Source: Octopus sinensis (lineage: Eukaryota). Taken from it: a stretch of DNA of 64,000 nt. This document shows positions 19,445 through 60,960 of this stretch, one piece after another. Under the pieces are notes generated by a model. That model was given only the letters and a program-made list of their open reading frames with translations, had not been told where the DNA came from and searched no databases. The DNA lies in contig NC_043021.1 of assembly GCF_006345805.1 (NCBI RefSeq), positions 26,350,001-26,414,000 of the forward strand. Direction: 5' to 3'. The first letter of the stretch is position 1. Each line of letters opens with the position of its first letter. Both the position numbers and the translations under genes were made by a program.

Positions 19445-19818
19445 AGTAAGTAAAAGAATAAAAGAATATATATATATGAGGCAAATCGTTGCTAAACCCT
19501 TAATTACTTAGTATTACTTAAACTTTCCTCGAACGAGGCTTTTACATGCCGAAATCTACTTGGTGAAATTAATGATTATTCCAAATTAATTAGTTTTACC
19601 CTATTTTATTACTGATATATATATATATATATATATATATTCTTTTATTCTTTTACTTGCTTCAGTCATTTGACTGTGGCCATGCTGGAGCATTGCCTTT
19701 AGTCGAACAAATTGACCCCAGGACTTATTCTTTGTAAGCCTAGTACTTATCCTTTCAGTCTCTTTTGCTGAACTGCTAAGTTACAGGGATGTAAACACAG
19801 ACACACAAATACACACAC

Positions 19819-26294: not shown

Positions 26295-26495
26295 CCCCTT
26301 GTTTAAGTTATTTGGCTGCAGCCAAGGTGGGGCACCACTGTGAAGGGTTTTTTAGTCAAGCAAATCGACCCCAGGACTTATTTTCTTAAGCCTGGTACTT
26401 ATTCCATCAGTCTCTTTTGTCAAACTGCTAAGTTATGGGAATGTAAACACACCAACACTAGTTGTCAAATAGTGAGAAGGATACAAACACAGACA

Positions 26496-26529
<34 letters not shown>

Positions 26530-26668
26530 GAGCTTCTTTCAGTTTCTGTCTACCAAATCCACTCACAAGGCTTTGGTTGGCCCAAGACTATAGTAGAAGA
26601 CACTTGCCCAAGGACCCACAGAGTGTGACTGAACCAGAAATATGTGGTTGGAAAACAAGCTTCTTATA
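26295..26668 (-). mobile_element. tRNA-headed SINE family 1
   Basis: Consensus blocks. Confidence 0.75.
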
Positions 26669-26669
26669 T

Positions 26670-26897
26670 ATTTTTTTACTGCCCACAAGGGGCTACACAC
26701 AGTGAGGACAAACAAGGACAGACAAAGTGATTAAATTGATTATATCAACCCCAGTGCGTAACTGCTACTTATTTAACCGACCCTGAAAGGATGAAAGGCA
26801 AAGTTGACCTCAGCGGAATTTGAACTCAGAAAGTAATGGCAGACGAAATATCGCTAAGCATTTCGCCCGGCGTGCTACCGTTTCAGCTAGCTTCTTG
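26670..26897 (-). mobile_element. SINE family 3
   Basis: Minus strand ...GCACGCCGGGCGAAATGCTTAGCG...GAGTTCAAATTCCGC (B-box-like); multiple relatives in the window. Confidence 0.7.
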
Positions 26898-26932
26898 CCA
26901 CACAACCACTTCTCCACCTATATATATAAATA

Positions 26933-27295
26933 AAAATTATAATAAAAGGTTAATTGCAACAAGTTGCTCAAAACCACATACCGAAAATATTAGAAATAGC
27001 AGCCAAATTGATCACTATTTCTCCTACTAATAAAAGTCTCCACAAACAAACAGAATTTGTAACCCATATATGGTAAAAAGAAAGAAAATAACGAAATCTC
27101 ATCCTATGGATTAATTATAGATGAATATGGCTGCTATTTCTAATATTTTCGGTATGTGGTTTTGAGCAACTTGTTGCAATTAACCCTTTATTATAATTTA
27201 TATAATTCTTAGCAAATATGGTCTTTTCCATACCGATAAATCTACTAGGTGAAATTTATTAATTTTATTAAATTAATTACATTTCACCCTTTTTT
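26933..27295. mobile_element. Inverted pair of retrozyme-family module fragments
   Basis: 26935-27005 is the reverse complement of 27128-27198. Both are diverged relatives of 27535-27690. Confidence 0.7.
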
Positions 27296-27316
27296 TGTAT
27301 ATATATATATATATAT

Positions 27317-28191
27317 TGAAGAGAAAAGAAGTTTTGGTAAGGTAGAATTATTTAATATTTAATTCTTATGCTTTCCTAAAAACTTGATTTCGAAACGTGA
27401 GTCCGTAGATAACTTAAAATTGTATGATAGATTGCCGTCAATTCATTCTCTCTTACCTGTTTGTGTCTGCCTTCCAATTGCTGTTTTTACTGAGATCTCC
27501 CTTTTTAGTAGAAGAAATAGCTATAACTCTTTGACTGCTATTTCTAAATTCGGTATGTGGTAAGGCAATTCGTTGCTAAACCCTTTATTGCTTAGTATTA
27601 CTTAAATTTTCCTCGAATGAGGCTTTTACATGCCGAAGACTACTTGGTGTAATTGATAATTATTCCAAATTAATTAATTTCACCCTTCATTATTACGGAT
27701 AACCATATTTTATCTCAGTAGATGACCACAGCATCATGTTTTGGCTACACGCGGGTGGGAAGGGGCTGGTGACACAATCTTTTCATTCACACTTTGAATT
27801 TGGTGATACTAGTTGCGGATTCTAGCTCGCTCTGATGCTGAGTTGAGTTGGTGCCTTCTAGTATCTCAAAATTCAATATATAATCATTTATGATTATAGT
27901 ATTCTACGCTGAAGAGAAAAGAAGTTTTGGTAAGGTAGAATTATTTAATATTTAATTCTTATGCTTTCCTAAAAACTTGATTTTGAAACGTGCGTCTGTA
28001 GATAACTTAAAATTGTATGATAGATTGCCGTCAATTCATTCTCTCTTACCTGTTTGTGTCTGCCTTCCAATTGCTGTTTTTACTGAGATCTCCCTTTTTA
28101 GTAGAAGAAATAGCTATAACTCTTTGACTGCTATTTCTAAATTCGGTATGTGGTAAGGCAATTCGTTGCTAAACCCTTTATTGCTTAGTAT
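27317..28191 (+). mobile_element. Non-coding retrozyme/Penelope-like element, partial tandem (about 1.5 x 593 nt), inserted in (TA)n
   Basis: 27317-27598 is repeated at 27910-28191 with only 3 differences seen. Each repeat starts with a hammerhead motif. No ORF. Confidence 0.8.
27903..28002 (+). ncRNA. Type-I hammerhead ribozyme with long stem II
   Basis: TCTACG-CTGAAGA-[stem II]-GAAA-C GTGC G-TC-TGTAGA. Stem I is TCTACG/TGTAGA (CGTAGA in copy 1). Predicted GUC cleavage after 27996. Confidence 0.75.
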
Positions 28192-28653
28192 ATATATATA
28201 TATATATATTTGATAGACTTGGTCATTCTCTCTTTTGTAGTTATGGTATTCTAGAAAATTGCACCTTTGCAAACTCTGGCACTGTGGGCAGCCAGCAAGA
28301 TGATTTTTTCCCTGTCTTGTTTTAGCATTCTAAAGTAAGACATAGACTAAGCATAAGATTCTTCTATAATTTCCATGTGTGTGTTGAGTTGCAATGAGAG
28401 TAAGATTATCGATGTCTGAGAGTTCCAGTTCACAAAATGGTACAGAGGTGGCAATCGATATGAAGGTCAGCAGAGGTTTGGATCAAAACTGATGAGTTTT
28501 TAGACGAATGCATCTAAGCAGTCCTCAGTTTGGCTCATCCCTGCATTGGTAAGAGACCAAAATAAAGGACCTCAAAGGCATGTCTCACTTTCTCTGATTG
28601 GACATCCTCAAGTGGTGGTGATGGGGGACATTTTTGTAGATAAAAGAACCAAT

Positions 28654-29015
28654 ACAGGTGTAGCTATATATGGTAAGAAGTTTGCTTCCCAACCACATGA
28701 TTTTGGGTTCAGTCCCACCGCATGGCACCTTGGGCAAGTGTGTCCTACACCTCTGGCTGGCCAAAGCCTTGTAAGTGGATTTGGTAGATGGAAACTAGAA
28801 GAAGCCTGCTGTGTGTGTGTTTGTCCATCACCACCACTTGACAACCGGTGTTGGTGTGTTTACATCCCTACAACTTAACAGTTTGGCAAAAGAGACCAAT
28901 AGAGTAAGTACCAAGCTTTAAAATAGGAATAAGTCCTGAGGTCGATTCATTCAACTAAATATTCTTCCAGATGGTGCCCCAGTATGGGCACAGTCTAATG
29001 ATTAAAACAAATAAA
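28654..29015 (+). mobile_element. tRNA-headed SINE family 1
   Basis: Consensus blocks. Confidence 0.7.
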
Positions 29016-55695: not shown

Positions 55696-55719
55696 TGTAT
55701 GTATGTATATATATATAAA

Positions 55720-56145
55720 AATAATTAAAAGGGCGGGCAACAGGCTGCTTCGCCGCATACCGAAGGAATTAGAAATGGCAGTCAAAGACTGTTTTTTCCA
55801 TTTTCTACAAGTGGAGGTTCCATATACGACAAAACCTGCGATTCACATATGCAAAATCGGAGTAGCAAATAAACGAAAACAATCTCTTACCATCAATGGT
55901 GAACATGTTTCTAGATCACAGGCTAGAAATTGCCTGATTTCCTTCGTCAACACCATATTCAATAGATTTAGCAAATGCCACAAGCCTTCACCTCTGACCA
56001 AGCGACATCAGAAAGTGGGGGGAGGTGTGCAGATGTTAAAACTAAGTAATGACTGGGACCGTAAATTTTCCCTCCAAAATTCTGCTATGCGCGCCGCCTG
56101 GGTGATCGCAATGGAATAAGAAATCCACATGGTAATACAATAAAA
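55720..56145 (-). mobile_element. Diverged relative of the 27.3-kb retrozyme-like element
   Basis: Carries a hammerhead and the TTTGACTGCCATTTCTA..TTCGGTATGCGG module; flanked by (TA)n. Confidence 0.6.
55896..55956 (-). ncRNA. Type-I hammerhead motif (C3>U)
   Basis: ATGGTG-TTGACGA-[..CAGGC AATTTCTA GCCTG..]-GAAA-CATG-TT-CACCAT; 6-bp stem I; palindrome ACATGT. Confidence 0.6.
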
Positions 56146-58620: not shown

Positions 58621-60960
58621 GGATCTGTATAGACCCAAAAGATCCCAGTCGTGCCATAAAAAGAGAACATTGTCCCATGAGAACTGTTGAGGAAATCATG
58701 TCATGAATGCCAGGTGCCAAGATGTTTGGATTTTGGCAGAAACAACTTGATTAAAGCAGTTCCAAGTTGTGTAGCTTCAATACCCGGTTCAGCAGATACC
58801 GATTCACTCAACTACTTTTTGGAGTGAAGTCGGCACTGGAGGTATTTCAGAGAACAATGTTACAAATCCTAGAAGATTTATCTATCACAGAATGTATTAT
58901 GTCCAGCAACATGATGAAAAGCTGCCATGGTGTTCTGAACAGAATACAGTCAAGTGGCCTGAAACTGAATGCAGTGAAATGCAAGCTGAGAATGATGGGG
59001 GTCACATATGTAGGGCATCTTCTCACTGACATGGGACTGAAGCCAGATCCTGAAAAGGTGACGGCTATCTGACAAATGCCAGAGCCTGAAAACAAGACAG
59101 ATCCAATGAGATTCCTTGGTATGATACAGTATCTGGGAAAGCTTGTGCCAAATCTCTCCTGTGGAATTGCAGCTCCACGAGAGTTCTTGCCAAAGGACAT
59201 TGCATGGCACTGGGAAGGAAGGCAGCAAACATGTTTCAAGAATTTGAAACAAAGAGTGACAGAGATTCCAGTGTTACAGTACTTTGATGTTAGAAAGCCA
59301 GTAATGTTATCAGTGGATGCAAGCTCCAATGGAGCTAGGAGCAGTGTTGATGCAAGCTGACAAGCCTGTAGCATTCGCTTTGGGGGTCACTGACAAATGC
59401 GCAAAAGAAGTATGTACAGATTGAGAAAGAGATGCTCGGTATCCCAAATGGATGAGAGAAGTTTCATCAGTACATCTCTGGGAAAACAGTTCAAGAAGAA
59501 ACTGATCAGAAACCCCTTGAAGTCATATTTCAGAAACCCTTGATCTTCTCAGAGGTTGCAGAGAATGTTGCTGTGTTGACAGAAGAATGATCTTCAAGTT
59601 ACCTACAGACCCAGCAAAGAACTGATTGTTGCAGTTTCCTTGAGCTGGGCATATCTTAAAATCGGTAATGATTGATTCGATGAAACTGAGCGTGATGTGG
59701 ACTTAATATGACAACTGGCAATGAGCTCAGAAAAGTTGAGCGAATGAGCCACAACTGCAACAGCTGAAATCAGTGATTCAGTGTGGATGGCCAGAAAACA
59801 GAAATGATGTGTCCAGCAAGAGTGAGAGACTGCGGGAATATTCGAGGTGGAATGACTTTTGGTGATGATGGCCTCATCTTCAAAGCTGCCAAAGTTGTAG
59901 TTCCTGCAACACTACAAACAGAAACGTTGAAAAGAATTTGTGATGCTCATTTCGGAGTGACAAAGTGCATACTCAGAGCCAAAGATGCTATCATCTGGCT
60001 CGGAATGACTCTACAAATTGAAGATTCTGTATCACGATGTTCTGTGTGCAATGAGAACAGAAAGAGGAATCCGAAACAACCATTGAAGAGCCATGACATT
60101 CCTGACTGACCGTGGACTAAAGTCGGAGCCAACTTGTTTGTGTACAAGGACAATGACTACCTGGTGTGTGTGTGGACTGTCTCTCAAAGTACCCTGGAAT
60201 TGTGCAATTGTCTGGCCCATCAAGTAAAATGACAATCACAGCAGTGAAATCTGTCTTTGCCAGACACAGCATCCCAGGTGAGCTCATGACAGATAACGGA
60301 CTGCAGTTTACGAGTGCAGAGTTCTGTAACTTTGGTCTAAAATCAGAATTCAATCACACAACATCGAGTCTGACACACCCACAATCAAACAGACAAGCTG
60401 AGTGATTCAGACAGTAAAAAACCTGCTCAAGAAAACAGAAGCCAGTGGCTGAGATGTCTACTTAGCTCTACTCGAGTACAGAAATACGCCGGTTGACATG
60501 GTCAATCTATCACCAGCTCAAATGCTAATGAGCAGGTGCCTGAAGAGTCACTTACCTGTATCTGATGCCTTGCTGAAACCTCAGATACAGGACCAGAAAC
60601 AGCTACACGATCAGCTGAAAGCAGGTCAAGAACAACAGAAGTACGAGTACGACAGAGGCAGTAGAGAGTTGCCTTCCGCGACTCCTGGACAGCAAGTCGG
60701 GATTCAAGAAAAGCAGTCACAGAAGAAACCTGGAGTTATCAAATCAGTTGATGATACACCAAGATCCTACAACATAACCATGTCAGATGGAAAACAGTAT
60801 CGATGAAATTGCCACCGTCTGCGGACAGCTGCTGAGAATCCAACAACTCAACCAAATGGAGAATGTGAAGAGATTGTGAACTGTGATACAGATGAGTCCG
60901 AGACTACAGACTCTATCGTTAATCAAACTATGAGATCCAGAGGAAAAAATCAACATGTCA
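58621..60960 (+). mobile_element. Decayed Ty3/Gypsy pol (RT, RNase H, integrase)
   Basis: RYRFTQLLFGVKSALEVFQR, GLKLNAVKC, VDASSNG, QIEKEML, ETDQKPL, HFGVTKC..CSVC, TDNGLQF, HPQSNRQAE, LSPAQMLMSR, PRSY. Many stops; no LTRs recognised. Confidence 0.9.

Follow-up and report, generated by a model that had tools for sequence, protein, structure and literature searches.

A multi-copy, hammerhead-bearing repeat of Octopus sinensis that is likely a non-autonomous Penelope-like element

A non-coding element that lies between (TA)n tracts, repeats its own beginning further downstream and carries a hammerhead ribozyme motif raises the question of what kind of mobile element it is, and whether its RNA was copied into the genome from a circle. 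Such an element is present in a 64,000-nucleotide stretch of the Octopus sinensis genome (NC_043021.1), referred to here as the window, whose own numbering is used for all coordinates. An original prediction, made from the letters of this stretch, proposed a cephalopod retrozyme with a 593-nt circular RNA replicon. A cephalopod host is corroborated by a 485-codon single first coding exon (24767-23313, minus strand) that is 100% identical to an MFS transporter, SLC45A3, named from Octopus sinensis, and the SLC45A3 start codon is about 2.5 kb from the element, which is situated upstream of it on the opposite strand. Penelope repeats have been reported in octopus genomes (PMC8967140). The element is a multi-copy, non-coding octopus repeat and likely a non-autonomous Penelope-like element (PLE), that is, a non-LTR retrozyme, for which an autonomous PLE would supply the reverse transcriptase and endonuclease that insert it in TA microsatellites.

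The predicted layout, a non-coding element between (TA)n tracts with 282 nt repeated 593 nt further on, is recovered from the sequence and from a repeat search of the window, in which two direct repeats on the plus strand, 27317-27598 and 27910-28191, share 99% identity. The genomic copy spans 1.48 units, or 875 nt in total. Repeat copy 1, which resembles a pseudo-LTR (pLTR), is 5'-truncated at U4 of the hammerhead core; it is followed by a single-copy 311-nt non-coding spacer (27599-27909, plus strand), and copy 2 stops at the short 3' end of the family, with a TAT microhomology to the adjoining (TA)n tract. The target tracts flank the element on both sides, at the 5' junction (27298-27316, common to the element and an adjoining relic) and at the 3' junction (28189-28209), and all three related insertions of the window likewise lie in (TA)n. 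The 593-nt unit contains a type I hammerhead and has no ORF in six-frame translation, Pfam returned nothing for its 66-aa open stretch, and its G+C content of 34.7% is below the 45% ceiling for retrozymes. The 5' truncation and the partial tandem arrangement that forms pLTRs are traits of EN+ Penelope-like elements.

Exactly three mismatches separate the two repeats (copy 1/copy 2: 27391C/27984T, 27400A/27993C and 27404C/27997T). Their number and their location in the ribozyme had been predicted correctly, but the clustering is unremarkable, because all three fall on CpG cytosines and four of the seven CpGs sit in the ribozyme (P about 0.15). The idea that selection had acted against the ribozyme here was rejected, as CpG decay is explanation enough and the element and SLC45A3 are on opposite strands. 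Each of the three differences is private to one copy, so the two repeats were probably identical when inserted, as would fit a circular template, a tandem transcript left uncleaved, or a jump between templates.

The complete type I hammerhead occupies 27903-28002 on the plus strand and consists of a 6-bp helix I (27903-27908 with 27997-28002), CUGAAGA (27909-27915), a 69-nt helix II (27916-27984), GAAA (27985-27988), helix III ACGTGCGT (27988-27995) and C17 at 27996, with predicted cleavage 3' of C27996. It thus contains the core elements CUGANGA, GAAA and NUH together with helices I-III, helix I being the open one. Helix II, anticipated at about 70 nt, is built of 4 bp, a 2x2 internal loop and a long interrupted hairpin (fold z-scores of -2.1 in copy 2 and -2.6 in copy 1, with variants across the family), and in the predicted fold the internal loops would sit where the usual loops 1 and 2 are expected. 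The upstream hammerhead (27317-27409, plus strand) keeps helix II, GAAA, helix III ACGTGAGT, C17 at 27403 and the 3' strand of helix I; as foreseen, the 5' strand of helix I is missing, and C3 is missing too, the copy starting at U4. C17 was located at both of the proposed GUC sites, 27403 and 27996. Without the helix I 5' strand and C3 in copy 1, the locus does not offer the two complete ribozymes by which retrozymes are recognized. Of the stem I that had been attributed to each repeat, TCTACG/CGTAGA, the 6-bp helix is real, but its perfect form occurs in no single copy, copy 2 having TGTAGA; the ribozyme of copy 2 therefore contains a G-U pair in helix I, and a further G-U pair at positions 10.1-11.1.

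A 6-bp helix I, a 4-bp base of helix II and a short palindromic helix III are described as the canonical hammerhead geometry (PMC4209133), and the octopus ribozyme, judged from its sequence, is of this canonical geometry, unlike the minimal PLE type. Invertebrate retrozyme hammerheads with a 2-bp helix III and a tetraloop are reported to be able to cleave as monomers (PMC7761336; PMC7229834), and most invertebrate motifs are described as doing so (PMC7761336); the earlier expectation that such elements cleave as dimers is therefore not imposed by the helix III seen here, although its palindrome allows dimers.

The complete motif is the sole match of a strict hammerhead descriptor in both strands of the 64 kb, and none of 5000 dinucleotide shuffles of the unit contained a comparable match. 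The Rfam model Hammerhead_1 (RF00163), proposed at the outset as a check, aligns end to end over all 45 model positions at 27903-28002, yet scores only 13.2 bits (E 1.6) against a gathering score of 34. The drop is attributable to the long helix II, which the alignment treats as a 65-nt insert. The hammerhead was reported neither by a gathering-threshold Rfam scan of the whole window, which gave no hit of any kind, nor by an E-value scan of 1.9 kb (26800-28700), which returned chance miRNA and sRNA matches only. Standard annotation misses this octopus family because its helix II is long.

The unit belongs to a multi-copy family. Family words were found in 20 of the 24 sequencing runs listed (58-79% of the sampled words per run), from 10 studies with 5 organism labels; one of these labels may be the source of the window itself. 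Ten of the positive runs are RNA by guess only, none being recorded as RNA. One exact period (27467-28059) was compared, at 80% likeness, with the contigs of 4 of these 20 runs, a comparison that is blind to RNA ends, and matched 1727, 2, 47 and 37 contigs. At 27984 and 27997 all of the depth is C in all four runs, giving a canonical G10.1-C11.1 pair and a perfect helix I, and the two G-U pairs of the complete ribozyme of the window are thus private CpG transitions. Among the 40 of 78 variants listed, none affects CUGAAGA, GAAA or GUC. A single-copy unit or an unconserved core would have spoken against the prediction; across the 20 runs and these 40 variants, the unit is instead multi-copy, with a conserved canonical hammerhead. 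The variant 27992A, which produces the perfect palindromic helix III ACGTACGT, accounts for 54% (X3), 100% (X8), 90% (X9) and about 100% (X10) of the depth. Variants in helix II include changes in the apical loop (27948, and a 7-nt insertion after 27941), two that on hand inspection fit an alternative register (27935A opposite 27962T, 27934C opposite 27963G), and 27928C, which costs one terminal pair.

In the deep DNA run X3, the summed depth is 0.4-1.4 M over 27487-27666 and about 0.1 M over the spacer; this depth includes relatives at 80% likeness and is not a copy number, but as far as can be read from contigs the profile points to a high-copy family rich in short 3' fragments from 5'-truncated copies. 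Coverage of the spacer is high in X3, and in each of X8, X9 and X10 individual contigs span it; one of these, 629 nt long and from X8, runs unbranched through a full period plus 22 nt. The common path is thus the 593-nt unit and not an ORF-bearing form. A joint going back 593 nt is present in all four runs. This joint and the 629-nt contig were considered as proof of circles and rejected, since the overlap is 22 nt and any partial tandem gives the same joint. No dimeric or longer form with two complete ribozymes was found in the window or in the four runs compared, and the joints listed for these runs include no splice joints, leaving an intron in the unit unsupported. Pattern scans for the family in metagenome contigs and viral contigs gave no match.

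The haplotype that dominates in X8 and in the RNA-guess runs X9 and X10 is rare in X3 and more often has the perfect helix III palindrome. It is marked by 27793A (72% in X10 and 97% in X9, versus 0.06% in X3) and 27928C (74% and 93%, versus 2.5%), in a comparison in which the RNA labels are guessed, the individuals differ, about 80% of X3 was read, and X3 shares its organism label with X10. The skew hints at transcription from one or a few source loci. The depth of the RNA-guess runs over the unit is discordant, nearly flat in X9 and peaked like DNA in X10, and these profiles were set aside. Changes in X9 comprise 20 A>G versus 10 T>C, an excess that could reflect A-to-I editing if judged by the base changes; the same contigs carry other changes as well.

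Cleavage at both GUC sites would release a 593-nt monomer (27404-27996, plus strand; 34.7% G+C), which has a strong predicted fold in which helix I joins both ends (z-score -5.4 on the plus strand, matched by none of 100 shuffles, versus -2.8 on the minus strand). The fold includes a predicted 48-bp long-range stem between 27421-27484 and, in the spacer, 27728-27789. When 39 family variants were placed on this fold, 13 kept a pair, 13 broke one and 13 fell on unpaired positions, with 56% of transitions expected to keep a pair by chance; the monomer fold remains a predicted one to which the variants lend no covariation support. In the same kind of modelling, the catalytic fold of copy 2 lies 4.3 kcal/mol above the local minimum, helix I within one copy has a predicted probability of about 0.001 in the whole element, pairing of helix I across copies is preferred by a predicted 5 kcal/mol, and a cross-copy helix III is predicted to be weak (-4.1 versus -8.8 kcal/mol). 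Given the decay at three CpGs and the loss of half of the first ribozyme, this copy is probably crippled and a poor or dead source.

How the element was inserted is clarified by its relatives, three of which were detected by BLAST of the unit against the window. The nearest (26925-27297, 71-75% identity) is a relic composed of an inverted 5'-truncated copy and a forward copy with a tail of about 100 nt at one end only; it directly abuts the element and shares its (TA)n tract. Relic and element together form a nested Penelope-type hotspot. An inverted 5'-truncated copy joined to a forward copy with a one-sided tail is described as a PLE signature (PMC8557442 and its preprint); it occurs here in the adjacent relative, not in the element, with a tail of about 100 nt versus 30-40 nt for PLEs. 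The second insertion (19479-19617, plus strand) is a 5'-truncated copy of the same family (88% identity, unit positions 247-385), with TA on both sides and the long 3' end. The third (55715-55960, minus strand) is a distant relative with (TA)n at the short 3' end and a decayed type I hammerhead (32-nt helix II, ACATGT palindrome), in which C3 and C17 are both T, followed by an intron-like stretch (GTAAGA ... TAG) and the shared 3' module. The relaxed hammerhead class to which it belongs gives about 0.2 matches per shuffled window; since such matches are fairly frequent by chance, the stronger argument is its place in a related element, where its spacing from the same 3' end is similar.

Common to the related relics is a structured 3'-terminal module (27505-27701, plus strand), which contains both insertion ends of the family and may be the region where reverse transcription starts. 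Two 3' ends are fixed within it, a short one at unit position 282 (27598), used by copy 2, the inverted arm of the neighbour and the 55.7-kb relic, and a long one about 100 nt further, at unit positions of about 375-385 (27690-27701), used by the forward arm of the neighbour and the 19.5-kb copy. A two-sequence consensus fold of the module has 27 shared pairs and a small covariation term, too little to count. In PLEs, tails have been traced to two internal start sites of the reverse transcriptase together with AT-rich nicking (Frangieh et al., PMC11167929). The original view that the element was inserted as a partial tandem repeat in the manner of Penelope elements is upheld by the TA targets, the 5' truncation and the more-than-unit-length copying, and in the relatives by the inverted head and the two fixed 3' ends.

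These features can be assembled into a tentative mechanism. A source copy would be transcribed on the plus strand across at least two hammerheads, and the predicted ribozyme would cut after GUC, as a monomer or, via the palindromic helix III, as a dimer. Cleavage would free a folded 593-nt RNA, the ends of which would be held by helix I and could be closed by a host ligase. A Penelope protein would nick (TA)n DNA and begin reverse transcription inside the RNA, at either of two sites flanked by hairpins (unit position 282 or about 385); at this locus it would have read 875 nt and passed the cleavage site two times. Copying of a linear monomer after cleavage could extend at most 195 nt from the 3' end, versus the 875 nt observed, and the template must thus have been a circle or an uncleaved tandem transcript, or else the reverse transcriptase jumped between templates. 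The circular template and the uncleaved tandem transcript appear about equally probable, and it is the likeness to mussel, coral and axolotl retrozymes that would incline us towards the circle. No match to a PLE reverse transcriptase or a GIY-YIG domain was found by Pfam among 118 + 8 frames of the window, and an ORF with both domains between the pLTRs is absent. Hammerhead predictions do not always translate into activity, 8 of 9 predicted Xenopus retrozymes being reported not to cleave in vitro (10.64898/2026.07.22.740005), and in the PLE of Anolis cleavage is described as needing protein, as dispensable for insertion, and as leaving no RNA-seq read ends (PMC11167929). The fullest version of the proposal, an active octopus retrozyme family that is hidden from Rfam by its 69-nt helix II, yields RNA circles from a minority subfamily with a perfect palindrome and preserves in its genomic copies the trace of a circular template on which Penelope-type initiation took place at two internal sites, is speculative, and we consider it doubtful. 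If true, it would give a direct handle on the hypothesis that Penelope reverse transcriptase rolls round retrozyme circles, and the extended helix II would be a docking or protein-binding arm.

A serious competitor, to which we assign somewhat less than an even chance, retains the element and the Penelope helper and dispenses with the circular stage: uncleaved partial-tandem transcripts would be the templates of a non-autonomous PLE (a 'solo pLTR' family), with a hammerhead that is weak, protein-dependent or otherwise used. Precedents are available, as the Anolis PLE is reported to use mainly unprocessed RNA, with hammerhead mutants that inserted normally (PMC11167929), and non-autonomous PLEs free of hammerheads are described as making pLTRs and head-to-tail insertions (PMC8557442); the presence of only a 1.48-mer here, and the variants that give the monomer fold no covariation support, point the same way. 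Against it, the ribozyme is canonical (6-bp helix I, 4-bp helix II base, 2-bp helix III) and not of the minimal PLE type, the family has kept both core and palindrome, the predicted whole-monomer fold is strand-biased with its ends joined, and purely linear copying would be expected to erode the 5' end in every generation. The locus may alternatively be a rare internal-deletion product of an autonomous PLE, with two pLTRs and nearly all of the ORF lost. Its pLTR-spacer-pLTR layout is that of a PLE minus the ORF, and a dip in X3 depth at 27687-27706 could mark where an ORF once began, but this origin is unlikely, as the spacer carries no ORF trace, has high depth in X3 and lies within individual contigs of X8, X9 and X10, and as none of the 20 of 115 loose ends listed exits the spacer, bar one 22-nt palindromic end on a single contig.

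The term 'replicon' in the original prediction implies more, namely a viroid-like circular RNA that replicates from RNA to RNA and of which genomic copies are fossils. It is unsupported: no hammerhead was found on the minus strand of the unit, nor any other Rfam ribozyme in the unit. Points in its favour are the scarcity in DNA run X3 of the haplotype (27793A, 27928C) that prevails in the RNA-guess runs, and the highly folded state predicted for the monomer, but one or a few transcribed source loci account for the haplotype skew more simply, and we regard an RNA replicon as very improbable. Least credible of all, to the point that it can practically be dismissed, is a local tandem duplication in which a hammerhead-like motif occurs by chance; the sub-threshold Rfam score and the helix II z-score of only about -2 are what such a coincidence would give, whereas the absence of comparable motifs from 5000 shuffles, the multi-copy family with its canonical core, and the related relic, which has a hammerhead too and has it about as far from the same 3' end, all contradict it. 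A non-autonomous PLE with a retrozyme-type ribozyme thus remains the preferred identity of the element.

Other features of the window include a second intact type I hammerhead-like motif (23138-23085, minus strand), with CUGAAGA, a 29-nt helix II, a 10-nt palindromic helix III, A at N17 and a 5-bp helix I. This motif lies about 175 nt into the intron that follows the large SLC45A3 exon, in sense orientation and about 150 nt upstream of (TA)n; its strict class gave no match in 60 shuffled windows. It is probably another Penelope-type relic, and from its sequence and orientation it could in principle cut SLC45A3 pre-mRNA. Besides the hammerhead of the element, two hammerhead-like motifs in the 64 kb are also below the Rfam threshold. 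The PLE cluster is bracketed by inverted copies (26351-26666 and 28674-28959, 78-84% identity) of a repeat that we take to be SINE-like, with more copies near 30.4-30.7 kb, and decayed pol remnants of Ty3/Gypsy type (58755-60402, plus strand) retain reverse transcriptase, RNase H, an integrase zinc finger and an integrase core in separate broken frames.

Among known systems, the closest are the non-LTR retrozymes of animals, which were proposed as a class (PMC7229834) and have lately been argued to be non-autonomous PLE derivatives (10.64898/2026.07.22.740005). Like these (Cervera and de la Pena 2020; Li, Clavereau and Pollet 2026, as far as their descriptions extend), the octopus family has a non-coding, low-GC, multi-copy unit with one canonical type I hammerhead each, a monomer that is strongly self-paired (by prediction here), and a short helix III with a palindromic loop, and a mollusc example has been described in mussel (350-390 bp). 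The 593-nt unit, at first held to be unusually long, exceeds the 170-400 nt reported for invertebrate units (PMC7229834) but lies within the 51-972 bp reported for consensus lengths of retrozyme families, which average 650 in ray-finned fish (10.64898/2026.07.22.740005). Unlike the short helix II hairpin described for non-LTR retrozymes, helix II is 69 nt here, and the octopus locus, known from its sequence, has one complete ribozyme. Compared with Rfam RF00163, all 45 positions, the core and helices I and III are matched, the difference being the 65-nt insert in helix II.

The manner of insertion resembles that of the hammerhead-bearing pseudo-LTRs of EN+ PLEs (PMC4209133; PMC8557442; Anolis PAc, PMC11167929), with a partial tandem, 5' truncation, an AT-rich or (TA)n target and a hammerhead upstream of fixed 3' ends, and with an inverted head and a one-sided tail in the octopus relatives. 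By contrast with the elements described in those papers, the octopus family lacks an RT-GIY-YIG ORF, its hammerhead is canonical and not minimal, and its two 3' ends are about 100 nt apart versus 30-40 nt. It also resembles the non-autonomous PLEs of Chlamys, e.g. MRC1 (PMC8557442), which are non-coding, form pLTRs, are arranged head-to-tail and depend on an autonomous PLE, whereas those elements are green-algal and, as described there, mostly without hammerheads. No cephalopod retrozyme was found in the literature searched, and repeat libraries (Repbase/Dfam) or supplements may already list the family; 235 Rfam hammerhead hits are given in the giant squid genome paper (PMC6962438), in a passage that carries no analysis of them.

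The octopus family probably works like, and is, a non-LTR retrozyme, and it would extend this group to cephalopods without defining a new kind of system. It illustrates that Rfam can overlook canonical hammerheads even where they are abundant, if their helix II is very long. Its long helix II and two mapped 3' ends are the features that merit attention. Since a ribozyme of retrozyme type is here combined with insertion ends of Penelope type, a tally of the 3' ends of the copies and of their lengths could reveal whether Penelope reverse transcriptase copies RNA circles.
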